This document shows positions 17,576-61,845 of a DNA stretch of 64,000 nt, in pieces. The notes under the pieces are model-generated. The model was given only the letters and a program-made list of their open reading frames with translations, was not told the DNA's origin and ran no database searches. The stretch is from Eledone cirrhosa (Eukaryota): positions 27,094,001 through 27,158,000 of the forward strand of contig OZ024748.1 in assembly GCA_964016885.1 (NCBI GenBank), given 5' to 3'. The stretch's first letter is position 1. Every line of letters begins with the position of its first letter. Position numbers and translations under genes: made by a program.

Positions 17576-18392
17576 CTCCCTGTGTGATATAGGACTGACT
17601 ACAGCTACATAATAACAGCTCCCTGTGTGATATAGGATTGCTGGATCAGGGCTGACTACAGCTACACAATAACAGCTCCCTGTGATATAGGATTGTTGAA
17701 TCAGGGCTGACTACAGCTACACAATAACAGCTCCCTGTGATATAGGATTGCTGGATCAGGACTGACTACAGCTACACAATAACAGCTCCCTGTGATATAG
17801 GATTGTTGAATCAGGGCTGACTACAGCTACACAATAACAGCTCCCTGTGATATAGGATTGCTGGATCAGGGCTGACCACAGCTACACAATAACAGCTCCC
17901 TGTGATACAGGATTGTTGAATCAGGGCTGACTACAGCTACACAATAACAGCTCCCTGTGATATAGGATTGCTGGATCAGGGCTGACTACAGCTACACAAT
18001 AACAGCTCCTTGTGATATAGGATTGCTGGATCAGGGCTGGCCACAGCTACACAATAACAGCTCCCTGTGATACAGGATTGCTGGATCAGGACTGACTACA
18101 GCTACACAATAACAGCTCCCTGTGATATAGGATTGTTGAATCAGGGCTGACCACAGCTACACAATAACAGCTCCCTGTGATATAGGATTGTTGAATCAGG
18201 GCTGACTACAGCTACACAATAACAGCTCCCTGTGATATAGGATTGCTGGATCAGGGCTGACTACAGCTACACAATAACAGCTCCCTGTGATATAGGATTG
18301 TTGAATCAGGGCTGACCACAGCTACATAATAACAGCTCCCTGTGTGATATAGGACAGTTGGATCAGGGCTAAACTAGGGTTACACAATAACT
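17576..18392. repeat. 55-bp minisatellite, ~14 copies, upstream of FAIM coding exon 1
   Basis: CTCCCTGTGATATAGGATTG(C/T)TG(G/A)ATCAGGGCTGACTACAGCTACACAATAACAG at 55-bp spacing (17731, 17786, 17841...). Confidence 0.97.
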
Positions 18393-23353: not shown

Positions 23354-23668
23354 GAACTAAATGATGAATGTTCTACTGAGAATCTTAGCCATCCAGATGC
23401 CAGTGGTGATAGAATTGGTATTGGAAATAGACCCAGGTATCACCAAGTGTTGAAAGAAGGAGATGCCAGCGTTGATGGAGTCTGTATCAGAAATAAACCT
23501 GCCAACAATGAGATAATCACTGTTAAAAATGGCTCCCAGGTTTCACATCTGTTGAGAATAGGAGATGACAGTCGTTATCGAGCTGCTATGAAAAATAGAA
23601 ACAAGATTCCTTTAAATGTAATAGAAGATGATTTTTGGACCGTGAAACTTGAAGACTCTTCATCAAAG
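23354..23668 (+). CDS. CEP70: CEP70-like exon (divergent N-terminal region)
   Basis: cag|GAA CTA AAT...TCA AAG|gtaatg, 105 open codons, phase 0-0 compatible with the next exon; no recognisable homology. Confidence 0.6.
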
Positions 23669-29320: not shown

Positions 29321-29395
<75 letters not shown>

Positions 29396-35300: not shown

Positions 35301-38300
35301 ACAGTGCATTACTGGTACTCTATTTTATCGACTCCGTAAGAATGAAAGGCAAAGTTAACCTCGGTGGGATTTGAACTCAGAATGGCAAGGGTCGTAACTC
35401 TATACGTCAAAGCATGGCGTCCGACCCTCTACCGATACTGCCAATCCACCATGTGTTATAATAATAATTATTATTATTATTCTTTGCCTTTCATCCTTAC
35501 GGGGTCGATAAAATAAAGTACCAGTAATGCACTGGGTAATTGCTGGCCTTGTGCCAAAAGTAGAAACAATTGTTGGTGTTGTTGTTGTTGTCATTCTTGT
35601 TGTTAGCAGCAGCAGCTGGTATGGGACAATGTTGTTGTTTGTGGGAAAACTGTTGTTACCGACTGTCAAAACTTTGGCTGCGTTGTTGTGCCTTTGAAAT
35701 TTGTTGTTTGTATCAAATGTATTGTTGTGAAATTTTATGTTGTATCTGTTGGTCTTGTCGGGTGGCGGACGTTTAATATTTATTTCAAATATTTTTTCGG
35801 TGTAGATGTAGCGGAGAAACAGATAGAGAGGAAGAATCGACCCCAGTACTTGACTGGTACTTTTTTTTATCGACTTTGAATGGATGAAAAGCAAAGTTGA
35901 CCTTGCCAAAACTGGAATATATGTGAGACATGCCCCCCCCCCCCCCCTCCTGCTTGTCTGGGATGACAGTATCTCCAATTAAGTACTGACTTGGTCTGTG
36001 ACAACATTTTCAACCCATGCCAGTATGGAAAAACTAATGTAAAATGATGATGATGATTGACATTGTATTTTCTTCTTACTTTTTTTTTTTTCAGTTTTGC
36101 TCTAGAATGTGTAGCATGGTTCAACAGACACATTACAATAAGACAAAAGACCATGAAATATCATCAAGGTGTGAACTGTCTGAAGACACATTAAAATATG
36201 TCTTGGAGATGTTGTCCTCATTCAATGAGGACATCCAGAAACGGCAGGTAAAATATGTCATTAAAATATGTCCTAGAAATGTCCTCGGTCAATGAGGACA
36301 TCCAAAAATGTTAGGTAATATACATCATCTTTTATAACTTGAAAATACGGTTAAGAACAAAATTAGGGTTTAGTTTCTTGTTGTTGTTGTTTAACTGAAA
36401 CTTTCAAATATTTTTTTACAAAATTTAATCAAATGAGTCAAGGGCGTGTCCTTGACACTTCTTTAGCGCCTCCGAGACATGTCAAGGGGAGAGGCAGAGC
36501 TTCTGAAACTGGTAGTGGTATGGGGTCAGGGCTTCCAGGAACCAATAGGGGAAACAGCAGAGTCTCGTGTGGAAGAGGCAAGGCTTCAGAAACTGGTGGT
36601 GGTGGGGGAAGGGCCTCCAGAACTGGTAGAGGGAAGGGCAGAGCCTCTTGAGACTGGTTGGAGGAGAGGGGGGCTTCAGAAACTGGTGGAGGTGATGGGG
36701 GGGGGGGGGGGGGGGGCAGAACTTTTTTTGGGAAGTGGGATATATATCACTGTTTTGTTTTTTAATCTCCATTTTTTATAAATGTTTTCATTGTTTTTCA
36801 GGATCTCATTACCTGTGTCAATAAAATGATCAACACTTTTATACCATGGGCCAGTGTAAAGTTTCACTCCACCGATTCCTTACAAGAAATAGTTCCAAGG
36901 TTACAGAAGATCTGCCAGTCATTGGTTCACATTACAACCATGGTTGGTGAATAAAGTCCTTCATTGTTGAAACTCCTTCATAATCCTCCCCCACACCCAT
37001 CAAGTCAACATTACAATCAGTAAATTCCCTTCACATATCAACGTAAGTCTTCTCCCTCCCACTGTCACGTGTGTCACTGCTACACGTCACATGACTCACT
37101 GCCATGTCACATGACTCGCTACCATGCCATATTTGATATACAATTTTCAAAGGCCTCAAACTCCCGTTCTTTTATTTTGTCCTGTTACTTGTAAGTACAT
37201 CATGTATACTGCTCTCTCTCTCTCACACATATATATATGTATATCAAGGAAACAAGAAACGAACAGTGACATGGCTGAAAATTGTGAGGTGAATCGTGGA
37301 GTATTGGGTGGAGCAGAAGTGTTGGACGATGGGAAATGGGTTGCCCAGTTGGATGTCTCGGAGGTGCTCAGCAAATCTGTCTGTCAAACGACAGCCAGTT
37401 TTGCCTATATAGATGGCCTCACATAGTATGCACTGGATCCTGTGAACGAGACTCGTGGAAGTGCAGCAGAGGAAGTCCCTAAATGTGGAAAGTTTGGCCA
37501 GTGAGAGTGGTAGTGTCAGTGAGGAAAGAACACGTGTGGCAGTGGAATTGGGAGCAGGGGTGGGATCCGGGAGATAAGTGGGAGGAGGGGGGGCGGGAAG
37601 TGAACTGCAGATGAGGAGATTGTGGAGGTTGCATGCACACTTGAAGGAGGGGTCCGACTGGAGGTTGCAGAAGAGACAGGATCATCTTCTGGAGAGGTAA
37701 GATGAAGGAGTGGTAGGTAAGGAGGAAGGGTAGCCAGTTGGTGTGGTGGGTGGGGTGGGGGTCGACCTGGACCAGGGCTGGGGGGTACCCTCACCAAGTA
37801 AACAGTCTAGCCATATTGAAGCTTGGGCTTTAAAGTCATGGGTTTAGTTGCACAGACGGTGAAGTAATTGGGAGTAGGGGATGGATTGTTTGGTGTGGGT
37901 GGAGTGCAAAGATGTGAAATCAAGGTAGGAGTGAGAGTCAGTGAGTTTAAAAAAGGCTTAGGTGATGAGGGAATGATGGGAGTGGTCAATTGAAAGAGAG
38001 ATGTCGAGGAAGTGGACGGAAGTGGTGGTGATGGAGGTGGTGAAGTCAAGGGCAGGGGGGAAAGGAGTTGAGCTGTTCTTGAGTGAGTGAGGTGGTGCTG
38101 ATACAGTCGTTGATATGCTGACTGTATAGCTCTGGGGTGGAACCCATGTATTTGGCAAAGATTTGGGCCTCAGCGTAGTCGACAAATAAGTTGGTGTAGT
38201 TGGGGCCCATTCTTGTGTCCATGACAACTCCAGTCACCTGTTGGTAAACCTCTATGTATTATATATATATATATATACTAGCAGTGGTACCTGGTGTTTC

Positions 38301-41300
38301 ACGGGATGAGGTATTTTAGAACGCGGGCCGCCAACAGACCTAATTGTGGAAAAACTGCATGCCTGGACAATATGTAAAGAAAATAAACTGAATACTCTGA
38401 TGGCTGGATAGTCTTTAAGATTTTCCTCGATGAAGCAGGAAAAATGCAGGTTTTTAGCTAATGCGGGCCCTAGGGGATAAAGAAAATGAATTTTTTTTAT
38501 GTGCATAATATGCCTTGAAATTTCGAGAAAATTGGCTCCTAAAAAAAGCCATAAAAAGCTGAAAAAATGAAGTTTTTCACCTAATGCGGGCCCTAGGCCA
38601 TAAAAAAGTTGGATTTTCTTTGCTCACGGTATGAAGGAGACTGACTAATACATAGTTACAATTTCAAGGAAATCGGTCTGACGTAATGCCTCAAAAAACC
38701 CCTAAAAAGCTGAAAAAACGCAGTTTTTCACCTAATGCGGGATCTAGGGATCAAAAAGTTGAAGCATAAGTAATACACATGTAAAGCATAAGTAATACAC
38801 ATGTAAAGTTTGAAAAAAATCGGTTGGGTACTTCTTGAGTTTTAGGGATTCAAACTCACAGACACACACACACACAGACAGACATCCTCAGTTTTATATA
38901 TATAGATTATCAACATGTTGGGACATCAGACCTGGGCCTATTACCAACTTTGCCCAAACTTAATCATTGCCAAATTACATCACACATCACATAGAGTTTG
39001 TTTCTTGTCAGTCACAATGAGTCAACACCTTCCTCCTGCTTTTTTTCCTTCAGAAACCCTATTTCCTCTCATTTCCCCTCTTCTACATTAAAAACATGAA
39101 CTTATTTCCACTATTTTCTTCCTAGGATGAAACTACATCCAGACAAGCATTAGAACACCTCATCCATCATTTCCAGGTTTTATTTGAGGTATCCTCAATA
39201 GAAGGGATTTATCCAGCCATGAATCAAGTCTATACAAAGGTTGGGGAACTGCAGAACATCATGAAAATACTGAAGAATTTGTTAGGCTTAGGTAAATAAA
39301 GATATTCCTTTCATATTTCCATCTATTTCTTTCTTCCTACTCTCCTTCAAACACTATTTGCATGTTTTTCTTTTTTTTTTGCTTCATCATGTCATCATGG
39401 GTTGTGTGTATCTAGTTAAGAATAGGTACACCATATCCCTACATATCATAAGAGGCTACTAAAAGGGTTTCTTTTTTACTTTCATAATGTCATGGGTTGT
39501 GGATCCAGTTCAGAATAGGTACAAGGTATACCGTGTCGCTGCATGTCATAAGAGGCGACAAAAGGGGTTTGGTGTCAGCATTCAGCTGTAAAACATTGCC
39601 TCAAGAAAGGATCCTATGACGGGTATGAAACCTGTTATGGGGTCTGCAATGCTTATCATTGCTTCAGAAAGCAAAATGATCTTAAGACACATGTAAGGGC
39701 AAAATAGCCTTATTACTCTTGTTATTATTATTGTCATTGTTAGGTGTAGAGGCAAAATAGTTTTAATACTCTTGTTGATGCTGTTGAGTGTAGGGGCAAA
39801 ATAGCCTTAGTACTCTTGTTGTTGTTGGGTGTTTGGGCAAAATAGCCTTAGTACTCTTGTTGTTGTTGGGTGTTAGGGCAAAATAGCCTTAGTACTCTTG
39901 TTGTTGTTGGGTGTTAGGGCAAAATAGCATTAATACTCTTGTTGTTGGGTGTTAGGGCAAAATAGCCTTAATACTCTTGTTGAGTGTAGGGGCAAAATAG
40001 CCTTAATACTCTTGTTGTTATCATTGTTGGGTATAGCTAAGTAAATAAGGTATTGAACAACCTATAACTGCAGGTAGGTTGGTCTTTTAGTTCTAATCTT
40101 CATTTTGTTTCTAGGCAGTCTATTTTATTCTGCATTGCCTCAGTTCATCATGTTGCCAGGAAATATTCACAAATTTCACTGACAAGGCAGTCAATCAGTA
40201 GCTATTGTAGGTGATGCTCAAAGATACTCCATAGTGGGGACAAAGCTGAAACTATGTAGTCTCAAAGTGAATTCCTTAACCACACAGCTGTGCCTTGCCT
40301 GTACATAGTTAATTTCTGTAAGCAGAACAGATTAAATATTATCAATAGTTGTTAGATACAATTTACAAGATCTCAGACTTTATTCACATACTAAGTGAGG
40401 TGGAGCTCATCAAATTGAACCGAAGAAATAATGTTTTGATTGGTCTTTCCAATTGTTGATACTATCTACTAGTTACAACTCCTGGCAGAAGTAGCAATGT
40501 TAAATAAACTTTCTTGCTCAAGGACATAATGTATTGCCTGGTCTGGGAATCAAACTCACAATTGCGGATCCAATTTTTAACCATTAAGCTATGTGCTTTC
40601 ACTTTATTATCAATAATATGTAATATCTAAGACAGACACACCCAAAATATTGATCCATTGACTGTTATCATAAATAGGACAGCCATCAATCAATAAAAAA
40701 CATATTAAATCTTTAGTATAGACATAGGCATGGCTGTGTGGTTAAAGAGTTCATTTCACAACCATGTGGCTTTGACAGATATGTATTATATTAATGTGGA
40801 TTTTTAAATACCATAGAAAATCTCACAGGTACTTTTTGTTTGTTCTAGATCCATCTTCAAAACCTTCAACTGTGGTGGATGCTGTCAATGAAATTTGTCA
40901 AATGCATAATGCCACAACATCAACACAACTGAAACATCTCCTCCAGACAGAAGATTTGGAAAGGTTTGACTTATGACCCACTTGAAACATTTATTTATTT
41001 ATATGTAATTTTATGACCCTATTGTTATTTATGAAATTTGAATAAGATTTATCATCATTTTAAATCAGCAGCGGGCTGCATAGGATGTGGCTCATCATTA
41101 GGTGGGACACACTCCTAAAAAGTTCAATACAATTTTGAAATTAGGTGAGCCAAACAGTCTGCAGTTTACCAATGTTTTAAAACAATACAGTTGAATGGTT
41201 CCCCTAAACTGGAACCCAAATTGACACCAAACTGCCTGAAATCACCCCTGGTTACAAAACAACGGTTTCTTTTTAAATGTTTATATTTATCTAAAACGTT

Positions 41301-41979
41301 CTATGTGTATCCAGTTTAAAATAGGTAGACCATCTCCCTGCATGTCATGTGAGGCGAGTAAAAAGGTTGGTACCAAGAAGGGCATCTTGCCATATAACAT
41401 TACCTCAAAACCTGTTATAGGGTCCACAAAGCTAACTAAATCCTGCTGAGGTCATTAAATGTAGTACTATTCCAGCACTGGGTACATTCTTCCTCTATAT
41501 GCACTCTCTCCTCTCTGTTTCTCTCTCTCTCCAACAACTACATATATTTTAACTACAATGTTTCCTTCTAATTTCAGTATTATCAAGAAACTGGAGGAGT
41601 ATGATGCTTTCTTCCCAACATTCCATGCAGTGATGTCAGAAGTTCTTCAGATACTCAGTAAGTCACTTTTCATTTCTCCCCCTTCTCTCTGTTCTACTCT
41701 CTTTCTGTTCCCCTCTCTATTTCTGTCCCCCTCTCTCATCTCTCTCTCTCTCTCTCTTCTCTTTAGTCTGCCCCTCACCTTCACCAATGTTCATCAACAC
41801 AGCCATTCCTTTTTTTGCCACTAAAAGTCCCTATTCATTAACCCACCCTCTCAACAGATGAGCCAATTGCCAGTTTAAACCTTTCTGTTCTTACAGCCAT
41901 CTTTTCGTTCTTTCCAGATGTCAAAAGCCTCAGTGATGTAATACCAGTTGTGAAGACACTCGTCCTTATGACTTTCTAA
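23354..41979 (+). CDS. CEP70: Centrosomal protein of 70 kDa-like; 13 exons recovered (517 aa, start exon unresolved)
   Basis: Exons 23354-23668, 25098-25183, 27964-28032, 29757-29820, 31154-31242, 31858-31972, 33018-33116, 36095-36247, 36802-36942, 39126-39291, 40849-40963, 41578-41657, 41918-41979 are all GT-AG and join in one frame (1554 nt incl. TAA). The C-terminus HHFQVLFEVSSIEGIYPAMNQVYTKVGELQN...EDLESIIKKLEEYDAFFPTF...DVIPVVKTL matches the recalled CEP70 C-terminus ([22 protein letters not shown]...[20 protein letters not shown]...AIVPAVKKL). Confidence 0.88.
23700..23960 (+). mobile_element. tRNA-derived SINE family B (other copies ~7335-7470 minus, 24190-24340 minus, 40500-40600 minus, 58400-58530 minus, 58715-58830 plus)
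   Basis: AGTGGT A-box, GGTTCGATTCC B-box, core TTCTTGAGCAAAACACTT...TTGCTCCAGT..ACTCAGCTG. Confidence 0.75.
25098..25183 (+). CDS. CEP70: CEP70-like exon
   Basis: tgcag|GAT CAA...GAG AA|gtaagt; DQKPHPKRPDIISEFQRHTDNIQSIMNE. Confidence 0.75.
25861..26215. repeat. ~40-bp minisatellite, ~9 copies
   Basis: TAATGGCATTTCTATCAAAAATCTCATTATGCTGACATCT variants. Confidence 0.95.
27964..28032 (+). CDS. CEP70: CEP70-like exon (coiled coil)
   Basis: tgcag|A ATA ATT GAC...TAT CA|gtaagt; IIDIVKVYEKRIEELEKDLEYY. Confidence 0.82.
28228..28722. repeat. 17-bp minisatellite, ~28 copies
   Basis: (G/A)CCAATCTAACAA(T/G)TCT. Confidence 0.95.
29757..29820 (+). CDS. CEP70: CEP70-like exon
   Basis: ttacag|A AAG AAA...CAT AGG|gtaact, phase 2-0. 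Confidence 0.75.
30096..30330 (+). mobile_element. L1/Tx1-like LINE fragment (zf-RVT zinc-binding region), fused to an RTE fragment at 29960-30095 minus
   Basis: LPVRDKLYRHG...CSRC...E..LHAFIQC (CxxC...H...C). Confidence 0.65.
30488..30523 (-). ncRNA. Minimal hammerhead ribozyme motif (same family as 57750)
   Basis: TCTT-CTGATGA-AGGACTAGTATCC-GAAA-CGTT-AATA; the flank also resembles 57700-57750. Confidence 0.55.
31154..31242 (+). CDS. CEP70: CEP70-like exon (coiled coil)
   Basis: tttcag|AAT CAG GAA...TCA CG|gtatat; EKILKEYVKKVNLLETKLKLLELEKQSR. Confidence 0.8.
31370..31820. repeat. Degenerate ~50-bp tandem repeat, ~9 copies, related to a motif in the RTE-tailed retroposons
   Basis: CACCCTGTAAGGTGGTAGTGCTGGTGCCATGACAAAAAAGCACCCAGTC; same motif at 4180-4290, 7850-7960, 29160-29290. 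Confidence 0.85.
31858..31972 (+). CDS. CEP70: CEP70-like exon
   Basis: tttcag|A GTG GGT...CTA CAG|gtaagt. Confidence 0.78.
33018..33116 (+). CDS. CEP70: CEP70-like exon
   Basis: acag|GAA CTG TAT...AAG CAG|gtaaaa; ELYEALDVEDPDQLLPAVQKM. Confidence 0.8.
33310..34860 (-). mobile_element. R4/Dong-like (RLE) non-LTR retrotransposon, internally deleted
   Basis: N-terminal RWKWSKQVNVVVMECYYFSNP...GYQ; C-terminal CRIC..., LAQKEYNRLHDN...HWALC, ILWDF, PDIVLIEK...WIIDIACP (PD..D nuclease). Confidence 0.82.
36095..36247 (+). CDS. CEP70: CEP70-like exon
   Basis: poly-T tcag|TTT TGC...CGG CAG|gtaaaa. Confidence 0.8.
36802..36942 (+). CDS. CEP70: CEP70-like exon
   Basis: tttcag|GAT CTC...ACC ATG|gttggt; FIPW resembles CEP70 LVPW. 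Confidence 0.8.
37255..38250 (-). mobile_element. Penelope-like element remnant (RT plus GIY-YIG endonuclease)
   Basis: YQQVTGVVMDTRMGPNYTNLFVDY (cf. G.AMG..MGP.YANLF) and downstream YIGKTGCRLTDRFAEHLRD. Confidence 0.85.
38278..38906 (-). mobile_element. Non-autonomous Helitron
   Basis: Minus strand A|TCTATATATATAAAA ... GC-rich subterminal hairpin (CCCGTGAAACACCAGG) ... CTAG|T; internal repeats CTAATGCGGG at ~38459, 38581, 38732. Confidence 0.78.
39126..39291 (+). CDS. CEP70: CEP70-like exon (conserved C-terminal domain)
   Basis: ctag|GAT GAA...TTA G|gtaaat; HHFQVLFEVSSIEGIYPAMNQVY. Confidence 0.92.
39690..40030. repeat. ~41-bp minisatellite, ~8 copies
   Basis: AGGGCAAAATAGCCTTAGTACTCTTGTTGTTGTTGGGTGTT. 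Confidence 0.92.
40849..40963 (+). CDS. CEP70: CEP70-like exon
   Basis: ctag|AT CCA TCT...GAA AG|gtttga; VVDAVNEIC...LLQTEDLE. Confidence 0.9.
41578..41657 (+). CDS. CEP70: CEP70-like exon
   Basis: tttcag|T ATT ATC AAG...CTC A|gtaagt; IIKKLEEYDAFFPTF. Confidence 0.92.
41918..41979 (+). CDS. CEP70: CEP70-like terminal coding exon
   Basis: ttccag|AT GTC AAA...ACT TTC TAA; VKSLSDVIPVVKTL. Confidence 0.88.
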
Positions 41980-41985
41980 CCTGGA

Positions 41986-44900
41986 AGACACTCACTCTAC
42001 TGACACAGTGTCACAGTGACAGCCAGTAGGGCAGACACTCAGCTTACTGACACAGTGACAGACAGTAGCACAGACACTCACCCTACTGACACAGTGACAG
42101 ACAGTAGGACAGACACTCACTCTACTGACATAGTGACAACCAGTAGGGCAGACACTCACCCTACTGACACAGTGACAACCAGTAGCACAGACACTCACCC
42201 TACTGACACAGTGACAACCAGTAGCACAGACACTCACCCTACTGACACAGTGACAGCCAGTAGGACAGACACTCAGCTTACTGACACAGTGACAGCCAGT
42301 AGCACAGACACTCACCCTACTGACACAGTGACAGCCAGTAGGGCAGACACTCACCCTATTGACACAGTGACAGCCAGTAGGACAGACACTCACCCTACTG
42401 ACACAGTGACAGCCAGTAGCACAGACACTCACCCTACTGACACAGTGACAGACAGTAGGGCAGACACTCACCCTACTGACACAGTGACAGCCAGTAGGAC
42501 AGACACTCATCCTACACACACAGTGACAGCCAGTAGGGCAGACACTCACCCTATTGACACAGTGACAGACAGTAGGGCAGACACTCACCCTACTGACACA
42601 GTGACAACCAGTAGGACAGACACTCACTCTACTGACACAGTGACAGACAGTAGGGCAGACACTCACCCTACTGACACAGTGACAACCAGTAGGACAGACA
42701 CTCACTCTACTGACACAGTGACAGACAGTAGGGCAGACACTCACCCTACTGACACAGTGACAACCAGTAGGACAGACACTCACCCTACTGACACAGTGAC
42801 AGACAGTAGGGCAGACACTCACCCTACTGACACAGTGACAACCAGTAGGACAGACACTCACCCTACTGACACAGTGACAGACAGTAGGGCAGACACTCAC
42901 CCTACTGACACAGTGACAGCCAGTAGGACAGACACTCATCCTACTCACACAGTGACAGCCAGTAGGGCAGACACTCACCCTATTGACACAGTGACAGACA
43001 GTAGGGCAGACACTCACCCTACTGACACAGTGACAACCAGTAGGACAGACACTCACTCTACTGACACAGTGACAGACAGTAGGGCAGACACTCACCCTAC
43101 TGACACAGTGACAACCAGTAGGACAGACACTCACTCTACTGACACAGTGACAGACAGTAGGGCAGACACTCACCCTACTGACACAGTGACAACCAGTAGG
43201 ACAGACACTCACTCTACTGACACAGTGACAGACAGTAGGGCAGACACTCACCCTACTGACACAGTGACAACCAGTAGGACAGACACTCACTCTACTGACA
43301 CAGTGACAGCCAGTAGGGCAGACACTCACCCTATTGACACAGTGACAGCCAGTAGGGCAGACACTCACCCTACTGACACAGTGACAGCCAGTAGGGCAGA
43401 CACTCACCCTACTGACACAGTGACAGACAGTAGGGCAGACACTCACCCTACTGACACAGTGACAGCCAGTAGGACAGACACTCATCCTACTCACACAGTG
43501 ACAGCCAGTAGGGCAGACACTCACCCTATTGACACAGTGACAGACAGTAGGGCAGACACTCACCCTACTGACACAGTGACAGCCAGTAGGGCAGACACTC
43601 ACCCTACTGACACAGTGACAGCCAGTAGCACAGACACTCACCCTACTGACACAGTGACAGCCAGTAGGGCAGACACTCAGCTTACTGACACAGTGACAGC
43701 CAGTAGGACAGACACTCATCCTACTCACACAGTGACAGCCAGTAGGGCAGACACTCACCCTATTGACACAGTGACAGACAGTAGGGCAGACACTCACCCT
43801 ACTGACACAGTGACAGCCAGTAGGGCAGACACTCACCCTACTGACACAGTGACAGCCAGTAGGACAGACACTCACCCTACTGACACAGTGACAACCAGTA
43901 GCACAGACACTCACCCTACTGACACAGTGACAGACAGTAGGGCAGACACTCACCCTATTGACACAGTGACAGACAGTAGGGCAGACACTCACTCTACTGA
44001 CACAGTGACAGCCAGTAGGGCAGACACTCACCCTACTGACACAGTGACAGCCAGTAGGGCAGACACTCAGCTTACTGACACAGTGACAGCCAGTAAAACA
44101 GACACTCATCCTACTCACACAGTGACAGCCAGTAGGGCAGACACTCACCCTATTGACACAGTGACAGACAGTAGGGCAGACACTCACCCTACTGACACAG
44201 TGACAGCCAGTAGGGCAGAAACTCACCCTACTGACACAGTGACAGACAGTAGGACAGACACTCACCCTACTGACACAGTGACAGACAGTAGGGCAGAAAC
44301 TCACCCTACTGACACAGTGACAGCCAGTAGGACAGACACTCACCCTACTGACACAGTGACAGCCAGTAGGACAGACACTCACCCTATTGACACAGTGACA
44401 GACAGTAGGGCAGACACTCACCCTATTGACACAGTGACAGACAGTAGGGCAGACACTCACCCTACTGACACAGTGACAGACAGTAGGGCAGACACTCACC
44501 CTATTGACACAGTGACAGACAGTAGGGCAGACACTCACCCTACTGACACAGTGACAGACAGTAGGGCAGACACTCACCCTATTGACACAGTGACAGACAG
44601 TAGGGCAGACACTCACCCTATTGACACAGTGACAGACAGTAGGGCAGACACTCACCCTACTGACACAGTGACAGACAGTAGGGCAGACACTCACCCTATT
44701 GACACAGTGACAGACAGTAGGGCAGACACTCACCCTATTGACACAGTGACAGACAGTAGGGCAGACACTCACCCTACTGACACAGTGACAGACAGTAGGG
44801 CAGACACTCACCCTATTGACACAGTGACAGACAGTAGGGCAGAAACTCACCCTACTGACACAGTGACAGACAGTAGGGCAGACACTCACCCTACTGACAC

Positions 44901-47900
44901 AGTGACAACCAGTAGGACAGACACTCACCCTACTGACACAGTGACAACCAGTAGGACAGACACTCACCCTACTGACACAGTGACAGCCAGTAGGGCAGAC
45001 ACTCACCCTACTGACACAGTGACAGCCAGTAGGGCAGACACTCACCCTACTGACACAGTGACAGACAGTAGGGCAGAAACTCACCCTACTGACACAGTGA
45101 CAACCAGTAGGAGAGACACTCACCCTACTGACACAGTGACAACCAGTAGGAGAGACACTCACCCTACTGACACAGTGACAGCCAGTAGGGCAGACACTCA
45201 CCCTACTGACACAGTGACAGCCAGTAGGACAGACACTCACTCTACTGACACAGTGACAACCAGTAGGACAGACACTCACCCTACTGACACAGTGACAGCC
45301 AGTAGGGCAGACACTCACCCTACTGACACAGTGACAACCAGTAGGACAGACACTCACCCTACTGACACAGTGACAGACAGTAGGGCAGACACTCACCCTA
45401 TTGACACAGTGACAGACAGTAGGGCAGACACTCACCCTACTGACACAGTGACAACCAGTAGGACAGACACTCACTCTACTGACACAGTGACAGACAGTAG
45501 GGCAGACACTCACCCTATTGACACAGTGACAGACAGTAGGACAGACACTCACCCTACTGACACAGTGACAGACAGTACGGCAGACACTCACCCTACTGAC
45601 ACAGTGACAGACAGTAGGGCAGACACTCACCCTACTGACACAGTGACAACCAGTAGGACAGACACTCACCCTACTGACACAGTGACAACCAGTACGGCAG
45701 ACACTCACCCTACTGACACAGTGACAGACAGTAGGACAGACACTCACCCTACTGACACAGTGACAGACAGTAGGGCAGACACTCACTCTACTGACACAGT
45801 GACAGACAGTAGGGCAGACACTCACCCTACTGACACAGTGACAACCAGTAGGACAGACACTCACCCTATTGACACAGTGACAACCAGTAGGACAGACACT
45901 CACCCTACTGACACAGTGACAGACAGTAGGACAGACACTCACCCTACTGACACAGTGACAGACAGTAGGACAGACACTCACCCTACTGACACAGTGACAG
46001 ACAGTACGGCAGACACTCACCCTACTGACACAGTGACAGACAGTAGGACAGACACTCACCCTACTGACACAGTGACAGACAGTAGGGCAGACACTCACTC
46101 TACTGACACAGTGACAGACAGTAGGGCAGACACTCACCCTACTGACACAGTGACAACCAGTAGGACAGACACTCACCCTATTGACACAGTGACAACTAGT
46201 AGGACAGACACTCACCCTACTGACACAGTGACAGACAGTACGACAGACACTCACCCTACTGACACAGTGACAGACAGTAGGACAGACACTCACCCTACTG
46301 ACACAGTGACAGACAGTAGGGCAGACACTCACTCTACTGACACAGTGACAGACAGTAGGGCAGACACTCACCCTACTGACACAGTGACAACCAGTAGGAC
46401 AGACACTCACCCTATTGACACAGTGACAACCAGTAGGACAGACACTCACCCTACTGACACAGTGACAGACAGTAGGACAGACACTCACCCTACTGACACA
46501 GTGACAGACAGTAGGACAGACACTCACCCTACTGACACAGTGACAGACAGTACGGCAGACACTCACCCTACTGACACAGTGACAGACAGTAGGACAGACA
46601 CTCACCCTACTGACACAGTGACAGACAGTAGGGCAGACACTCACTCTACTGACACAGTGACAGACAGTAGGGCAGACACTCACCCTACTGACACAGTGAC
46701 AACCAGTAGGACAGACACTCACCCTATTGACACAGTGACAACCAGTAGGACAGACACTCACCCTACTGACACAGTGACAGACAGTAGGACAGACACTCAC
46801 CCTACTGACACAGTGACAGACAGTAGGACAGACACTCACCCTACTGACACAGTGACAAACAGTAGGGCAGACACTCACCCTACTGACACAGTGACAGACA
46901 GTAGGACAGACACTCACCCTACTGACACAGTGACAGACAGTAGGACAGACACTCACCCTATTGACACAGTGACAGACAGTAGGGCAGACACTCACCCTAC
47001 TGACACAGTGACAGCCAGTAGGGCAGACACTCACCCTACTGACACAGTGACAGCCAGTAGGGCAGACACTCACCCTACTGACACAGTGACAGCCAGTAGG
47101 AGAGACACTCACCCTACTGACACAGTGACAGACAGTAGGGCAGACACTCACCCTATTGACACAGTGACAGACAGTAGGACAGACACTCACCCTACTGACA
47201 CAGTGACAGACAGTAGGACAGACACTCACCCTACTGACACAGTGACAGACAGTACGGCAGACACTCACCCTACTGACACAGTGACAGACAGTAGGGCAGA
47301 CACTCACCCTACTGACACAGTGACAACCAGTAGGACAGACACTCACTCTACTGACACAGTGACAGACAGTAGGGCAGACACTCACCCTATTGACACAGTG
47401 ACAGACAGTAGGACAGACACTCACCCTACTGACACAGTGACAGACAGTAGGGCAGACACTCACCCTACTGACACAGTGACAGCCAGTAGGACAGACACTC
47501 ACCCTACTGACACAGTGACAGACAGTAGGAGAGACACTCACCCTACTGACATAGTGACAACCAGTAGGGCAGACACTCACCCTACTGACACAGTGACAGC
47601 CAGTAGGACAGACACTCACCCTACTGACACAGTGACAGCCAGTAGGACAGACACTCACCCTACTGACACAGTGACAGCCAGTAGGACAGACACTCACCCT
47701 ACTGACACAGTGACAGACAGTAGGGCAGACACTCACCCTACTGACACAGTGACAGCCAGTAGGACAGACACTCACCCTACTGACATAGTGACAACCAGTA
47801 GGGCAGACACTCACCCTACTGACACAGTGACAGACAGTAGGACAGACACTCACCCTACTGACACAGTGACAGCCAGTAGGGCAGACACTCACCCTACTGA

Positions 47901-50900
47901 CACAGTGACAACCAGTAGGAGAGACACTCACCCTACTGACACAGTGACAGCCAGTAGGACAGACACTCACCCTATTGACACAGTGACAGCCAGTAGGACA
48001 GACACTCACCCTACTGACACAGTGACAGCCAGTAGGACAGACACTCACCCTATTGACACAGTGACAGCCAGTAGGACAGACACTCACCCTACTGACACAG
48101 TGACAACCAGTAGGAGAGACACTCACCCTACTGACACAGTGACAGCCAGTAGGGCAGACACTCACCCTATTGACACAGTGACAACCAGTAGGACAGACAC
48201 TCACTCTACTGACACAGTGACAGACAGTAGGGCAGACACTCACCCTACTGACACAGTGACAACCAGTAGGAGAGACACTCACCCTATTGACACAGTGACA
48301 GCCAGTAGCACAGACACTCACCCTACTGACACAGTGACACACAGTACGGCAGACACTCACCCTATTGACACAGTGACAGACAGTAGGGCAGACACTCACC
48401 CTATTGACATAGTGACAACCAGTAGGGCAGACACTCACCCTACTGACACAGTGACAGACAGTAGCACAGACACTCACCCTACTGACACAGTGACAGCCAG
48501 TAGCACAGACACTCACCCTACTGACACAGTGACAACCAGTAGGGCAGACACTCACCCTACTGACACAGTGACAGACAGTAGGGCAGACACTCACCCTATT
48601 GACACAGTGACAGACAGTAGGGCAGACACTCACTCTACTGACACAGTGACAGACAGTAGCACAGACACTCACCCTACTGACACAGTGACAACCAGTAGGG
48701 CAGACACTCACCCTACTGACACAGTGACAGACAGTAGGGCAGACACTCACCCTATTGACACAGTGACAGACAGTAGGGCAGACACTCACCCTACTGACAC
48801 AGTGACAGACAGTAGCACAGACACTCACCCTACTGACACAGTGACAACCAGTAGGGCAGACACTCACCCTACTGACACAGTGACAGACAGTAGGGCAGAC
48901 ACTCACCCTATTGACACAGTGACAGACAGTAGGGCAGACACTCACCCTACTGACACAGTGACCGACAGTAGGGCAGACACTCACCCTATTGACACAGTGA
49001 CAGACAGTAGGGCAGACACTCACCCTACTGACACAGTGACAGCCAGTAGCACAGACACTCACCCTACTGACACAGTGACAACCAGTAGGGCAGACACTCA
49101 CTCTACTGACACAGTGACAGACAGTAGGGCAGACACTCACCCTACTGACACAGTGACAGACACTCACCCTACTGACACAGTGACAGACAGTAGGACAGAC
49201 ACTCACCCTACTGACACAGTGACAGACAGTAGGGCAGACACTCACCCTACTGACACAGTGACAGACAGTAGGGCAGACACTCACCCTACTGGCACAGTGA
49301 CAGCCAGTAGGACAGACACTCACCCTACTGACACAGTGACAGCCAGTAAGACAGACACTCAACCTACTGACACAGTGACAGCCAGTAGCACAGACACTCA
49401 CCCTACTGACACAGTGACAGACAGTAGGGCAGACACTCACCCTATTGACACAGTGACAGACAGTAAGACAGACACTCAACCTACTGACACAGTGACAGCC
49501 AGTAGGGCAGACACTCACTCTACTGACACAGTGACAGCCAGTAGGACAGACACTCACCCTACTGACACAGTGACAGACAGTAGGGCAGACACTCACCCTA
49601 TTGACACAGTGACAGACAGTAGGACAGACACTCACCCTATTGACACAGTGACAGACAGTAGGACAGACACTCACCCTATTGACACAGTGACAGACAGTAG
49701 CACAGACACTCACTCTACTGACACAGTGACAGACAGTAGGACAGACACTCACTCTACTGACACAGTGACAGACAGTAGGGCAGACACTCACCCTATTGAC
49801 ACAGTGACAGACAGTAGGACAGACACTCACCCTATTGACACAGTGACAGACAGTAGGACAGACACTCACCCTATTGACACAGTGACAGACAGTAGCACAG
49901 ACACTCACCCTACTGACACAGTGACAGCCAGTAGGGCAGACACTCACTCTACTGACACAGTGACAGACAGTAGGGCAGACACTCACCCTATTGACACAGT
50001 GACAGACAATAGGACAGACACTCACCCTATTGACACAGTGACAGACAGTATGACAGACACTCACCCTATTGACACAGTGACAGACAGTAGCACAGACACT
50101 CACCCTACTGACACAGTGACAGCCAGTAGGGCAGACACTCACTCTACTGACACAGTGACAGACAGTAGGGCAGACACTCACCCTATTGACACAGTGACAG
50201 ACAGTAGGACAGACACTCACCCTATTGACACAGTGACAGACAGTAGGACAGACACTCACCCTATTGACACAGTGACAGACAGTAGCACAGACACTCACTC
50301 TACTGACACAGTGACAGACAGTAGCACAGACACTCACTCTACTGACACAGTGACAGCCAGTAGGGCAGACACTCACCCTACTGACACAGTGACAGACAGT
50401 AGGACAGACACTCACCCTATTGACACAGTGACAGACAGTAGGGCAGACACTCACCCTACTGACACAGTGACAGACAGTAGGAGAGACACTCACCCTACTG
50501 ACACAGTGACAGCCAGTAGGACAGACACTCACCCTATTGACACAGTGACAGACAGTAGGAGAGACACTCACCCTACTGACACAGTGACAGCCAGTAGGGC
50601 AGACACTCACCCTACTGACACAGTGACAGACAGTAGGGCAGACACTCACCCTATTGACACAGTGACAGACAGTAGGACAGACACTCACCCTACTGACACA
50701 GTGACAGCCAGTAGGACAGACACTCACCCTACTGACACAGTGACAACCAGTAGGACAGACACTCACCCTACTGACACAGTGACAGCCAGTAGGACAGACA
50801 CTCACCCTACTGACACAGTGACAGACAGTAGGGCAGACACTCACCCTATTGACACAGTGACAGACAGTAGGAGAGACACTCACCCTATTGACACAGTGAC

Positions 50901-53492
50901 AGCCAGTAGGACAGACACTCACCCTACTGACACAGTGACAGCCAGTAGGGCAGACACTCACCCTACTGACACAGTGACAGACAGTAGGACAGACACTCAC
51001 CCTACTGACACAGTGACAGACAGTAGGACAGACACTCACCCTATTGACACAGTGACAGACAGTAGGAGAGACACTCACCCTACTGACACAGTGACAGCCA
51101 GTAGGGCAGACACTCACCCTACTGACACAGTGACAGACAGTAGGGCAGACACTCACTCTACTGACACAGTGACAGACAGTAGGGCAGACACTCACCCTAT
51201 TGACACAGTGACAGCCAGTAGGACAGACACTCACCCCACTGACACAGTGACAGACAGTAGGGCAGACACTCACCTTATTGACACAGTGACAGACAGTAGG
51301 ACAGACACTCACCCCACTGACACAGTGACAGACAGTAGGGCAGACACTCACCCTATTGACACAGTGACAGACAGTAGGGCAGACACTCACTCTACTGACA
51401 CAGTGACAGACAGTAGGGCAGACACTCACCCTATTGACACAGTGACAGACAGTAGGAGAGACACTCACCCTACTGACACAGTGACAGCCAGTAGGACAGA
51501 CACTCACCCTACTGACACAGTGACAGACAGTAGGACAGACACTCACCCCACTGACACAGTGACAGACAGTAGGGCAGACACTCACCCTATTGACACAGTG
51601 ACAGACAGTAGCACAGACACTCACTCTACTGACACAGTGACAGACAGTAGCACAGACACTCACCCTACTGACACAGTGACAGACAGTAGGACAGACACTC
51701 ACCCTATTGACACAGTGACAACCAGTAGGACAGACACTCACCCCACTGACACAGTGACAGGCAGTAGGGCAGACACTCACCCTATTGACACAGTGACAGA
51801 CAGTAGGACAGACACTCACCCTACTGACACAGTGACAGACAGTAGGGCAGACACTCACCCTATTGACACAGTGACAGACAGTAGGACAGACACTCACCCT
51901 ATTGACACAGTGACAGACAGTAGGACAGACACTCACCCTATTGACACAGTGACAGACAGTAGCACAGACACTCACCCTACTGACACAGTGACAGCCAGTA
52001 GGGCAGACACTCACTCTACTGACACAGTGACAGCCAGTAGGGCAGACACTCACCCTACTGACACAGTGACAACCAGTAGGACAGACACTCACCCTACTGA
52101 CACAGTGACAGACAGTAGGGCAGACACTCACCCTATTGACACAGTGACAGACAGTAGGGCAGACACTCACCCTATTGACACAGTGACAGCCAGTAGGACA
52201 GACACTCACCCTATTGACACAGTGACAGACAGTAGGACAGACACTCACCCTATTGACACAGTGACAACCAGTAGGAGAGACACTCACCCTACTGACACAG
52301 TGACAGCCAGTAGGGCAGACACTCACCCTATTGACACAGTGACAGACAGTAGGACAGACACTCACCCTATTGACACAGTGACAGACAGTAGGACAGACAC
52401 TCACCCTACTGACACAGTGACAGACAGTAGGGCAGACACTCAGCTTACTGACACAGTGACAGCCAGTAGGGCAGACACTCACTCTACTGACACAGTGACA
52501 GCCAGTAGGACAGACACTCAACCTACTGACACAGTGACAGACAGTAGGACAGACACTCACCCTACTGACACAGTGACAGCCAGTAGGACAGACACTCACC
52601 CTATTGACACAGTGACAGCCAGTAGGACAGATACTCACCCTATTGACACAGTGACACAGTGACAGCCAGTAGCACAGACACTCACCCTACTGACAGTGAC
52701 AGACAGTAGGACAGACACTCACCCTATTGACACAGTGACATAGTGACAGCCAGTAGGGCAGACACTCACCCTATTGACACAGTGACAGCCAGTAGGACAG
52801 ACACTCACCCTATTGACACAGTGACATAGTGACAGCCAGTAGGGCAGACACTCACCCTACTGACACAGTGACACAGTGACAGACAGTAGGACAGGCACTC
52901 ACCCTACTGACACAGTGACAGCCAGTAGCACAGACACTCACCCTATTGACACAGTGACATAGTGACAGCCAGTAGGGCAGACACTCACCCTACTGACACA
53001 GTGACAGCCAGTAGGGCAGACACTCACCCTATTGACACAGTGACAACCAGTAGGACAGACACTCACCCTATTGACACAGTGACAGACAGTAGGGCAGACA
53101 CTCACCCTACTGGCACAGTGACAGCCAGTAGGACAGACACTCACCCTACTGACACAGTGACAACCAGTAGGGCAGACACTCACCCTATTGACACAGTGAC
53201 AGACAGTAGGACAGACACTCACTCTACTGACACAGTGACAGCCAGTAGGACAGACACTCACCCTACTGACACAGTGACAACCAGTAGGAGAGACACTCAC
53301 CCTACTGACACAGTGACAGCCAGTAGGGCAGACACTCACCCTACTGACACAGTGACAGACAGTAGGGCAGACACTCACCCTACTGACACAGTGACAACCA
53401 GTAGGGCAGACACTCACCCTACTGGCACAGTGACAACCAGTAGGACAGACACTCACCCTACTGACACAGTGACACAGTGACAACCAGTAGGG
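41986..53492. repeat. Giant 39-bp minisatellite (~295 units), consensus GACACAGTGACAG(A/C)CAGTAGG(G/A)CAGACACTCACCCTA(C/T)T
   Basis: Direct periodicity (13-aa repeat in both long ORFs); interspersed variant units; 7-bp insertions only at the edges. Confidence 0.99.
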
Positions 53493-53880
53493 AACATTCC
53501 AGATGTCTTAGAGAGAAGAGAAAAGAAGAATTACATACATCACCTACCATTGTCATCACTATCATCATCATCATCATCGCTACCCCCCTCCACCAACCCC
53601 AGCATCATCATCATGCGCATGTGTCTTTCTCATTTGATGATGTGTATTGCTGAAGGGTGTAGACCATTAATCTGGTCCTCTTTTAGGTATGTTCTGCACC
53701 AATTTACAGATGCTCCCTTGCCATCACTATCATCATCACTATCATCAAGATCATCATCACCATTATCATCATCATCTTCATCTAAATCGTTTCTATTAAA
53801 CAATTTAACAAAGCTTGATTTTAAAACCATAAATATATTTTGTATTTCTTTAATCAGTTTACTTTTTATTTGAAATATTT

Positions 53881-53886
53881 AATAAA
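53881..53886 (+). terminator. Candidate poly(A) signal for CEP70 (first AATAAA after the stop; ATTAAA also at 53795)
   Basis: AATAAA followed by a GT/T-rich tract; no AATAAA or ATTAAA inside the array. Confidence 0.45.
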
Positions 53887-54189
53887 TTGTTTTAAAATGG
53901 AGTCTTTTGGAGTTTTTCTGTTAGTTAAGCCTGAATATGGTCAACCCAGTCCATAAAACTTGTAAACTAATGATGAAATGTGCAAATTAATAACAAATTT
54001 TGAGGGTGTTACTAAAATTATTCATTATTTCATTACTAAAATAGTAACTTTATATACAATTATGTTGGAAGATTTAATTTAAATAGGAGCCCTAGGAAAT
54101 AGTTGGCTTTGTTTCATAGGACCGGAGCCAGTTTTGGTCAGGTTGATAACAAAAGAGCTGAAATTAAATATTTTATTTAATACCTTCAT

Positions 54190-55020
54190 GATTGTCATGT
54201 GCAGCCGGATTGGAAGTGGTATCACGACTGGTGGGTGTAAAATCAGTCGACTGGAATTTGCAGACAACATGGTGTTACTTAACTCAACAGAAGGTGATCT
54301 CTGACTTGCACTTGATAGGTTTGATGCTGGGTGCTGCATTGCTGGGATGAAAATCATTGCTGCGAAAACTGAGACACTCGACCTCAAGGAAGCCTGCACA
54401 GTGCACTCTACATGTGAATGGAGTTCCACTGAAGCAGGTGAATAAGTTCAAGTATCTCGGGCTGTGTTCATGAGTGATGGAAAGCAGGAAGATGAATTAA
54501 GTGTAAGAATTGCTTGCACTGTTAATGTTCCAGCTTCAGCATTCGGTAATCAGAAGGGAGTTAGGTGTAAAAGCCAAACTCGCTATCTTTAATTTGGTAT
54601 TCATGCCAACCCTTAACTATGGTCATGAATCTTGGGTAATGACCGAAAAAATACAATCACGAATAAAATTGGCCGAAATGAAATTCCTCCAAAGGGTCCT
54701 TGGAGTAATGTTACTCGATGGTGCATAGCTTGGAGATCAAAGAGTCACTCCAGGTAGAGCTGCTACTTCTCCGAATTAAGAGATCACAGCTCCGATACTA
54801 TGGGCATGTGGTTAGAATGTCTCAGGAAAGAATTGTTGGACAGATTTTACAGGCAAAACCAACAGGTAGTAGACCCTGAGCAAAATGGCTGGATAATATC
54901 CTTGAGCTTGGCTGGTCTCACTTGGGGACCCAACCAGATCAGTTGGAGATGGTTACATCTGGTAGGACCCACTGGAAGGAGTGTTTGAGGACACTGCCCT
55001 CCACCCCTCCTCAGGAATAA
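54190..55020 (+). mobile_element. RTE-like LINE RT and 3' fragment
   Basis: LEFADNMVL, FKYLG, PTLNYGHESWVMTEK; 3' end similar to 21120-21470. Confidence 0.8.
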
Positions 55021-57229
55021 GTGGACGAAGAAGAAGCTTTCAATATGAAACCACCTGAGATCACTCCTCATTCTATCATACAAAACTGTTTATTTGAAAG
55101 TGTCTATATTTATTTAAGAGCCTTGGTTAAGTTATCTTCTAAACATCAGCTTAATAATTGTTTCTACTTTAGGCACAAGGCCAGCAATTACCCAGTGCAT
55201 TACTGGTACTTTATTTTATCGACCTCGTAAGGATGAAAGGCTAAGTCAACCTTGGCGGGATTTGAACTCAGATCGTAAAGGGACGTAACTATGATGGAAA
55301 GCATGGCGTCCGACTCTCTACCGATACTGCCAAATGGTTTAAGATTTAGGCATAAGACCAACAATTTGGGGGGAAGGGGGAGTGCTACTGGTACTTTATC
55401 TTATCGACCCCCGTAAGGATGAAAGGCAAAGTTAACCTTGGCGGGATTTGAACTTAGACCATAAAGGGCCGTAACTCTATGCTTCAAAGCATGGTGTCCA
55501 ACTCTCTACCGATACTGCCAATCCACCATAATGAGAATGATACATGCATTGGTAATTCTCTCGGAATTCTTGAAAATCATAGACTGTGTTTATTAGAAAT
55601 ATTGTAAAAATGGGGCTTAAAAGATGGATTGATGAACAGAATTGCTTATTGATTTCTGTTTATTGGCATACTTTTGTCAAAACTGTTATTGAGTACTACT
55701 ACTACTACTACTATAGATGTGAGCAGTATCAGCAGTAATCACACCACACCTGTGGAAAAAAAGGTAGTGTTGGAGAAGTGGAAGGTACCAGTGACAGTCA
55801 CATATGTTGACTCACTTCAACAAAAATCCATTCAATGATTATATTTATTTTTATTTTTAAAATTTAATTTTTGTATTGTTTAGTGACAGGAGGGCAGAAT
55901 GACTTGACAAGAGATGTCAATGTCCTCTACAAATTGAAACAAAGGAGAGGAGTGTGTTTCAGTGCAGAATTAGTGAAGCAAGACATCAGCATAGTAGAGG
56001 TGGAGCGAAGGTTACAGTGTGTGGGTTTGAGGGGGAGAAAGTGGACTTGAAGAGGAGGTGTGAACTTGTTAAATTCAATGGAAGAGAAGTCACAGTAGAA
56101 GAGACAAAGAAAAAGAAAACAGCATGTTTGTAGAAATGTTTTAGTGACTAGAAGTATACAGTAATTGTTTCTACAGCAACTATCAGTACATTACTGGTAC
56201 TTTATTTTATTGACCCCGTAGGGATAAAAAGGCAAAGTTAACCTCCACGAAGCATAAGATAGATAATAAACAGGCTTTACATCAGAAAATGTTTTTTTCT
56301 TTTGGGTGTCAGAGACAACATTCCCCTGTTTAACACCACCATCTGGCCCTGGGTGTCTTTAGTAGAGTATACCCTTTCCCAATGCACTAGGGGTGGATAT
56401 ATTGTCTTTAATGCGTTGAAATAACCGAGATCCCAGCAGACAACTGGATTTCCAAACAGAACTTGAACCGCAAAAAGCAGAAAAGGAAAAAGAAAAAGAA
56501 AAATTTAGCTCCACACATGTCAACAAGCACACAAAACACATGCACAGCAAACTCAGGCACACCTACAACAACACCAACACCACAACCGCCAACAACACGA
56601 ACACAACCATAAACCATGCCCAACAAAAGAAAACACATCTAGACACCAACAACAACAGACACATCCAACTTCATGTTACTAAGAAAGGCCAACAAAAAAC
56701 TCATGCCCCTTGTAACATGAAGTCATGATATTGAGAAAGAAGGAGAGATTTTTGGCACCTGCACCTTCAAAGTGCCCCAAACACTGCTGATGGTCTTGGT
56801 GATGGTGGTGTGTGGTAGTGTTAGTGGTGGTGGTGGTGGTGTGCTGGTGTTGGTGATGGTGGTGTTAGTGGTGGTGGTGGTGTGGTGGTGTTAGTGGTAG
56901 TGGTGTTAGTGGTGGTGGTGTGTGGTAGTGTTAGTGGTGGTGGTGGGGAACGGTAAGTGTAGATTGTGGTAGGGGAATGGTAAGTGTAGATTGTGGTAAG
57001 GGAATGGTAAGTGTAGATTGTGGTAGTTAATTGACAATATCTACCCAATATTTTTTCATTAGAATTTGAGTGTAAAGTAAATATATTCTTACTGAATTTA
57101 TTTAATAAATTCAATACAATACATTTTAAAATACGAAAATATTGCTGAAAACTGACATTTAGGGCTGTCTTATACGCCTAGTCGCTTTGTACTCCAGCAT
57201 ATATGGTATATATATATATCTCTATATAT

Positions 57230-61692: not shown

Positions 61693-61845
61693 TGAACCTA
61701 ATAAACTTTTATTTGTACTGCCTCTCTGTTTTTGTTCCCGTCCAAATTTTCACTATATATATATATATCAAGGGCGGTGCCCCAGCATGGCCTCAGCCGG
61801 ATGGCTGAAACAGGTAAAAGAGTATATATGCAAATATATACATAC

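Follow-up and report, generated by a model that had tools for sequence, protein, structure and literature searches.

We analysed a 64,000-nucleotide window of the Eledone cirrhosa genome (assembly GCA_964016885.1, contig OZ024748.1, positions 27,094,001 to 27,158,000 of the forward strand), in which the end of the centrosome gene CEP70 is followed, directly behind the stop codon, by a large tandem array of 39-bp units. All positions given below are those of the window. A tblastn search with Octopus sinensis CEP70 located the coding region by its exon-sized matches (Table 1), whose edges are approximate except at the last two introns. The largest late exon showed 73% identity with the O. sinensis protein, and the exon at 39126-39290 had a single match across the 3.0-Gb genome. 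No Pfam match was obtained for the O. sinensis CEP70 query, or for three of the four window frames submitted. The initial annotation had taken the TAA at 41977-41979 as the CEP70 stop; we found that its position coincides with that of the stop codon in O. sinensis, O. vulgaris, O. bimaculoides and cuttlefish, in agreement with that assignment.

The array had been placed at 41986-53492, with an onset 7 bp past the stop and about 295 units. Its extent was confirmed at about 11.5 kb with 294 anchored units, and Tandem Repeats Finder (TRF) returned one array with a period of 39, 293.3 copies and 92% match. By anchored segmentation, 285 units are 39 bp long, five are 47 bp, one is 27 bp and one is 37 bp; besides these there are a degenerate unit at the start and a longer one at the end. 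Base composition on the plus strand is skewed strongly towards A and C (34% A, 31% C, 14% T). When the genome was searched with a 27-base core pattern, all 231 matches fell inside the array, as did 34 of 34 matches of a 29-base pattern with two mismatches allowed. BLAST gave three weak matches elsewhere (72-79%), located in simple-repeat tracts; two of these three loci were scanned, and the third overlaps the second. The array is thus confined to a single locus. An identical block of 12 units recurs 14 units further on, as compared with a maximum of five units across 200 shuffles of the unit order, showing that units were copied in blocks. Head-to-tail 39-bp units at one locus, with interspersed variants spread via block duplication, are the features of a minisatellite. 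In a control sample of four 200-kb blocks (800 kb), filtered for a period of 15-100, at least five copies and 85% match, we found 48 minisatellites, of which 12 are at least 1 kb and two at least 5 kb long (7.7 and 42.6 kb). The longer of these (G000:C3:40116009-40158561) has a period of 68, 627 copies and 92% match. Since kilobase arrays are frequent in this genome, the length of the array is ordinary, and it is its position after the CEP70 stop that stands out.

Each unit consists of 11 codons, a TGA and three further bases, corresponding to the end of CEP70. Read from the base before the 5' arm of an inverted repeat that is described below, 208 of the 285 units encode TVGQTLTLLTQ-stop-Q or PVGQTLTLLTQ-stop-Q. 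The C-terminus of CEP70 is PAVKTLTLLAQ-stop in O. bimaculoides and PTVKTLTLLAQ-stop in cuttlefish, and the P-type unit is identical to the orthologous C-terminus at 8 of 12 positions, the stop being counted. In a shuffle test, scored as the best match over both strands and all 39 registers, none of 4000 shuffles of the commonest unit reached its score against the O. bimaculoides or cuttlefish CEP70, and one of 4000 did so against that of O. sinensis. Since the unit matches the orthologous CEP70 end in register and adjoins the end of the gene itself, it appears to have been copied from the final 11 codons together with the stop and three further bases. The sequence comparison suggests that this copying likely took place via tandem duplication. 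We therefore favor, with a probability of roughly 0.72, the reading that the array is a single-locus minisatellite that arose from the tandemly copied CEP70 end and is now likely a passenger that lengthens the 3' untranslated region (UTR).

The protein itself seems to have changed its end since the copies were made. CEP70 now ends in KTL-VLMTF-stop, in which one of the last five residues is like those of the orthologues, as compared with four of five (TLLTQ) in the first non-coding copy. The present last five codons and the stop are encoded by the 22 bases between two copies of GAAGACACTC, and the pattern of this 22-base filler occurs once in the genome. The old end may have been pushed aside by a small insertion that brought a 10-bp duplication with it; alternatively, the coding copy may itself be a unit that has worn. 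The non-coding copies would accordingly keep an older C-terminus that the CEP70 protein no longer has.

Table 1. Positions of the CEP70 end, the array and associated signals and reading frames in the window
Feature	Start	End	Strand	Basis or remark
CEP70 coding region	23354	41979	+	tblastn with O. sinensis CEP70: 13 exon-sized matches, 23354 to 41970
Penultimate CEP70 coding exon	41578	41657	+	GT..AG joints in RNA run X4; tblastn
Coding part of last exon, ending PVVKTLVLMTF-TAA	41918	41979	+	Joint 41657>41918 in X4; translation
Coding codons P-V-V-K-T-L	41944	41961	+	15/18 identical to bases 1-18 of the unit, in register
Two copies of GAAGACACTC, at 41952 and 41984	41952	41993	+	32 bp apart
39-bp minisatellite, 294 units, 72 unit types	41986	53492	+	TRF, anchored segmentation and genome-wide pattern search
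Degenerate first copy with 8-bp duplication	41984	42022	+	Reads K-T-L-T-L-L-T-Q, like the orthologous C-terminus
Distal edge: 47-bp units and a 37-bp unit	52619	53483	+	47-bp units carry an 8-bp duplication (compare first copy)
Incomplete last unit, CCAGTAGGG	53484	53492	+	
AGTAAA, variant poly(A) hexamer in a single unit	44092	44097	+	No U-rich flanks, 15% T on both sides
ATTAAA, candidate poly(A) signal	53795	53800	+	
AATAAA, best candidate poly(A) signal	53881	53886	+	11,902 bp past the stop; upstream TGTA, flanks 46-60% T
3552-codon open frame, SRADTHPTDTVTA repeats	42004	52662	+	CEP70 frame, behind two stops
3564-codon open frame	41992	52686	-	

The array had further been suggested as the probable content of the 3' UTR of CEP70. 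The stretch behind it (53493-54120) is present in four sequencing runs of one study, which represent at most two samples and none of which is recorded as RNA. In one of them, X4, both last introns are removed at GT..AG joints and their unique parts have no depth, which identifies this run as RNA; the other three are DNA runs. An X4 contig of 186 nt (depth 6.5) covers 41616-41657 and then 41918-42030, plus 31 nt more (to about 42061), indicating that spliced CEP70 RNA crosses the stop and enters the first unit. Further X4 contigs on 41986-42014, with a summed depth of 45, have their source in the assembly only in units at 42618 or beyond. The RNA contigs carry no strand information. The start of the array thus lies within the UTR, as supported by the spliced contig across the stop and the contigs from internal units. 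On 41986-42030, the only difference listed between RNA and DNA is a C>T change at 41997, seen in X4 and absent from the three DNA runs, which is either an allele, an error or editing.

Evidence on the far end of the transcript came from the words of 53493-54120. We found a fraction of 0.55 of 58 sampled words in X4, and only 225 of the 598 words of this stretch lie in parts with contig depth or skipped repeats (P = 0.003 if sampling is even). This excess suggests that a post-array contig may have been filtered out. In X4, contig depth is absent from 53589-53719 and 53792-53973, two stretches for which the three DNA runs give one contig; as 53470-53588 and 53720-53791 were skipped as repeats and the filter omits some records, this gap was not used as evidence. 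Contig depth was also considered as a copy count and rejected as uncalibrated, the DNA runs giving an array-contig depth of 13-63 where far more was expected. The initial annotation stated that no poly(A) hexamer lies inside the array, which holds for AATAAA and ATTAAA, the first of which were confirmed at 53881 and 53795, but not for the variant AGTAAA (Table 1). The AATAAA lies 389 bp beyond the end of the array. The median octopus 3' UTR is about 380 nt (PMC9699675 supplement), a similar length, which would fit growth of the array between the stop and a UTR of ordinary size. The reach of the junction contig, discussed below, is a hint in the opposite direction, and an isoform of CEP70 with the full-length UTR to 53881 seems only slightly more likely than not.

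The inverted repeat CAGTAGGG-10 nt-CCCTACTG, which had been ascribed to each unit, is real, although a perfect stem is present in only 70 of 285 units. With G-U pairs allowed, all eight pairs are kept in 129 of 285 units on the plus strand and in 141 on the minus strand. A two-arm repeat of at least 8 bp arose in 7 of 3000 shuffled units, and when self-complementary sites that pair between neighbors were counted, 323 of 3000 reached 8 bp. The commonest 3'-arm variants are indeed CCCTATTG and CTCTACTG, and the G-U-keeping pattern is correct as it had been described; it contains no strand information. Whichever base of a G-C pair undergoes a transition, G-U pairing is retained on one of the two strands. 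Variants that preserve G-U pairing in repeats are, in themselves, no evidence of RNA structure. The 293 units contain 2344 stem cells: 2025 show no change, 113 give G-U on the plus strand, 151 give G-U on the minus strand, 49 are mismatched on both and six are compensatory; five of these six are at the inner pair, each with a broken outer pair. The counts are of copies among paralogous units and not of independent events. The commonest arm variant is a G/A difference in the 5' arm, split about evenly, which breaks the pair on the plus strand and keeps it on the minus strand. Of 30 variant types, 20 lie in the arms, which make up 16 of 39 positions (p = 0.004, uncorrected for G+C), and the two arms vary independently (Fisher p = 0.19). 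The longest helix predicted in three 600-nt pieces was 8 bp on the plus strand and 11 bp on the minus strand. ADAR favors long, nearly perfect duplexes of tens of base pairs or more, so that the array is predicted to be a poor ADAR substrate.

The stem may itself have a simple history. The coding copy (41944-41961) pairs with the 3' arm at 6 of 8 positions, and it departs from the unit at three bases, two of which account for the perfect stem of the unit. Template switching is known to perfect imperfect inverted repeats without selection (PMC8794818, PMC8604942), and an origin of the 5' arm from UTR sequence fits the perfection of the stem equally well. Each unit also contains CACAGTG inside a second imperfect palindrome, CTG-A-CAC-A-GTG-A-CAG, with 3-bp helices between units. 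CACAGTG resembles a V(D)J signal, and this candidate was dropped as no nonamer was seen by eye at 12 or 23 bases.

Both long open frames across the array (Table 1) were judged to be a chance property. Frames open on both strands arose in 96% of 20,000 shuffled units, none of 117 single-base changes closes the plus frame, and no excess of synonymous variants was found in any plus frame: 6 of 30 variant types are synonymous in the 3552-codon frame (8.0 expected) and 6 of 27 in the CEP70-like frame (9.2 expected). Synonymy through selection was also rejected as a cause of the commonest variants, three of the six common types being synonymous where 2.0 were expected.

The initial annotation had proposed that about 295 tandem stem-loops in a 12-kb 3' UTR may serve as a platform for protein binding, localization, decay or ADAR, considered here as a selected RNA platform. 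In addition to the inverted repeat, which exceeds chance for one shuffled unit, and the transcription of at least part of the array, this proposal could draw on folding predictions, in which the perfect hairpin reaches -11.0 kcal/mol and a 273-nt piece gives z = -3.07 against dinucleotide shuffles, and on the finding that A-to-I editing in octopus occurs mostly in introns and 3' UTRs (PMC9699675). The minus strand, however, is predicted to fold better in absolute terms (z = -4.20), has more eight-pair stems and also more G-U-tolerated cells, variants are enriched rather than depleted in the arms, and compensatory cells are few and accompany broken outer pairs. No Rfam family, satellite ribozymes included, was found at the gathering score in the window, the one match in 41940-43000 having E = 0.69, and 3 of 27 other minisatellite units sampled in the genome (period 25-60) also have inverted repeats of at least 8 bp. 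Selection for such a platform therefore seems quite improbable, and for its ADAR version no long duplex is predicted. Still less credible is a Thr-rich, mucin-like CEP70 tail made by stop read-through, or a separate protein. The plus frame is in the CEP70 frame and Thr, Ser and Pro make up about half of its residues, but it lies behind two stops (TAA at 41977 and TGA at 42001), one ATG is present in the entire array, and the frame has the chance properties given above. An unrelated satellite or mobile-element repeat inserted after the stop is as poor a candidate: many minisatellites derive from transposons (PMC3389668), and loose ends of a high-copy LINE (long interspersed nuclear element)-like family have 13 bases, AGACACTCGTCCT, in common with the coding end, whereas no genomic copy exists elsewhere apart from the three weak matches in simple repeats, and the match of the unit to the orthologous C-terminus is in register and adjacent.

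The remaining alternatives concern the array as assembled and as transcribed. Short-read contigs cannot span the array, which would allow a real array of erroneous length. The 72 unit types in non-random order, the edge-specific 47-bp units, and the three DNA runs, in which the 5' junction is confirmed and the contigs break at precisely the point expected from a graph of the entire assembled array (42041), make such an error very unlikely; the DNA runs may derive from the sample of the assembly itself, so that their agreement is not independent support. A better candidate, though one that we place below even odds, is that mature CEP70 mRNA holds only part of the array, via early cleavage (for example at the AGTAAA at 44092 or at some non-canonical site) or splicing of most of the array to 53686. 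This concerns only the reach of the transcript and is compatible with the proposed origin and growth of the array. The end of the junction contig fits a short transcript, the AGTAAA is present, there is a pyrimidine-rich, acceptor-like TAG site at 53686 with donor-like GTAAGA sites at 49346 and 49463, and, as very long 3' UTRs tend to trigger UPF1 decay, short isoforms would be favored. On the other side stand the depth-45 X4 contigs from units at 42618 or beyond, the excess of post-array words in X4, and the T-poor flanks of AGTAAA as compared with those of AATAAA (Table 1).

Several points weigh against the origin from the CEP70 end followed by a passenger role. The 22-base filler resembles the unit weakly (9 of 18 ungapped, with 231 of 20,000 shuffles as good; gapped, 706 of 5000). 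Of 319 altered stem cells, 270 are still paired on one strand or the other, which transitions alone would give. Six-unit blocks of the plus strand were matched in stability by only 7, 2, 1, 1 and 4 of 60 column-permuted controls, compared with 20, 20, 18, 5 and 10 of 60 for the minus strand. The X4 contig that reaches about 42061 is predicted for the assembled allele only if the RNA stops near 42300-42360, the whole array predicting a break at 42041. This argues against a full-length UTR unless the X4 allele, which differs at 41997, departs from the assembled one. The ancestral nucleotide end, the age of the array and its species range are deduced from proteins alone, and neutrality from one assembled allele, so that a length-dependent effect retains some plausibility.

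On balance, we prefer the hypothesis that the array was born from the CEP70 end. Slippage or unequal exchange would have duplicated about 39-47 bp that reach from the last codons across the stop and a short way into the UTR. The imperfect inverted repeat (6/8) may then have become a perfect one of 8 bp, via template switching or a 5' arm taken from the old UTR. The array grew as blocks of units were copied, by a mechanism that we can only infer, and point variants spread regardless of stem or frame. The last five codons of the coding copy would have been replaced or worn to VLMTF, while the array retains TLL(T/A)Q-stop. Spliced mRNA enters the array and probably runs on to the displaced signal at 53881, a step for which the odds are slightly better than even. 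Any effect on CEP70 would presumably be no more specific than that of any very long 3' UTR, and in our reading the locus is an unusually large gene-end minisatellite in a 3' UTR, and probably a neutral one.

The variable number tandem repeat (VNTR) in the 3' UTR of human SLC6A3 (DAT1) reportedly has a unit of 40 bp. The CEP70 array resembles that VNTR in being a minisatellite with predicted hairpins in the untranslated part of a last exon (PMC2883569). An effect on mRNA stability has been proposed for the DAT1 VNTR, in which alleles of 9 or 10 repeats are common and the UTR measures about 2 kb (PMC2883569), in contrast to about 294 repeats and a possible 11.9-kb UTR here, and a coding origin of the DAT1 unit is not mentioned in the available part of that report. 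Minisatellites have been proposed to be born between direct repeats of 5-10 bp (Haber and Louis 1998, as cited in PMC4232551 and PMC3389668) and to end in an incomplete last unit (Taylor and Breden 2000, as cited in PMC3389668). Like such single-locus minisatellites, the CEP70 array consists of head-to-tail units of local origin, breaks off within its last unit, is bounded on both sides by an imperfect 11-bp repeat, and contains interspersed variants copied in blocks. The distal end, CCAGTAGGG plus the next two bases, matches the coding copy at 9 of 11 positions, as birth between direct repeats would predict, yet it also matches the unit at 10 of 11. Unlike these minisatellites, the array derives from the coding end of a conserved gene of single copy, stop included, and comprises about 294 units, and the copy in the gene has since diverged further than those in the array. 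PTS repeats of mucins are coding VNTRs. With these and the last-exon VNTR of CEL the array shares a unit length divisible by three, a long Thr/Ser/Pro-rich frame and a place in the last exon; it differs in lying behind the stop, in repeating the old stop in each unit, and in that neither frame shows coding constraint. It also differs from 3' UTR ADAR substrates that consist of long inverted repeats in being a direct repeat with 8-bp stems. A repeat-rich 3' UTR in a heavily editing animal group is a likeness to ADAR 3' UTR substrates (PMC9699675), and the arm homogenization from 6/8 to 8/8 resembles the perfection of inverted repeats by template switching (PMC8794818, PMC8604942), which is a candidate here. 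We found no published report of the octopod CEP70 locus or of a stop-codon-derived array of such size, in a search that left subscription journals mostly outside.

The locus is a clear example of a minisatellite whose source is known, as the unit can be followed back, codon for codon, to the conserved end of a gene, and its copies would record a protein tail that CEP70 no longer encodes. For a minisatellite the array is large, it forms part of the transcript of a gene of single copy, and as a marker it would be highly variable. Should the full 11.9-kb UTR exist, length alleles would provide a natural test of how much 3' UTR repeat is tolerated before decay pathways act. A more far-reaching version is that the CEP70 mRNA carries this UTR (about 30 times the octopus median) with about 290 copies of the stop region, and that its length varies between individuals and sets CEP70 dosage via long-UTR decay, hairpin-binding proteins or repeated microRNA sites; we regard this as doubtful, and if it were true the array would be a natural dial on a centrosome gene.

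Other repeats were noticed in and around CEP70. A 67-bp tandem duplication at 36189-36322 takes in the 3' end of an internal CEP70 exon together with its donor site, and the duplicated exon end gave a second tblastn match at 36231-36305; this is another gene-derived duplication inside CEP70 and may provide an alternative donor. Smaller minisatellites are present at 17591-18391 (55 bp), 25861-26214 (40 bp), 28229-28721 (17 bp) and 39737-40019 (41 bp), the last three in CEP70 introns. The sequence TTCCAGATGTC occurs at the last-exon acceptor (41912-41922) and again just past the array (53497-53507) and is otherwise absent from the window, a recurrence that is probably due to chance; the second copy has no pyrimidine tract and is followed by a 130-codon frame without a Pfam match. 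Beyond the AATAAA signal, high-copy repeats with very high summed depth occupy 53974-55030, among which a decayed LINE-like fragment was read by eye. An open frame at 61705-62520 contains an endonuclease/exonuclease/phosphatase domain (PF03372, E = 1.8e-11) and is probably a LINE fragment.

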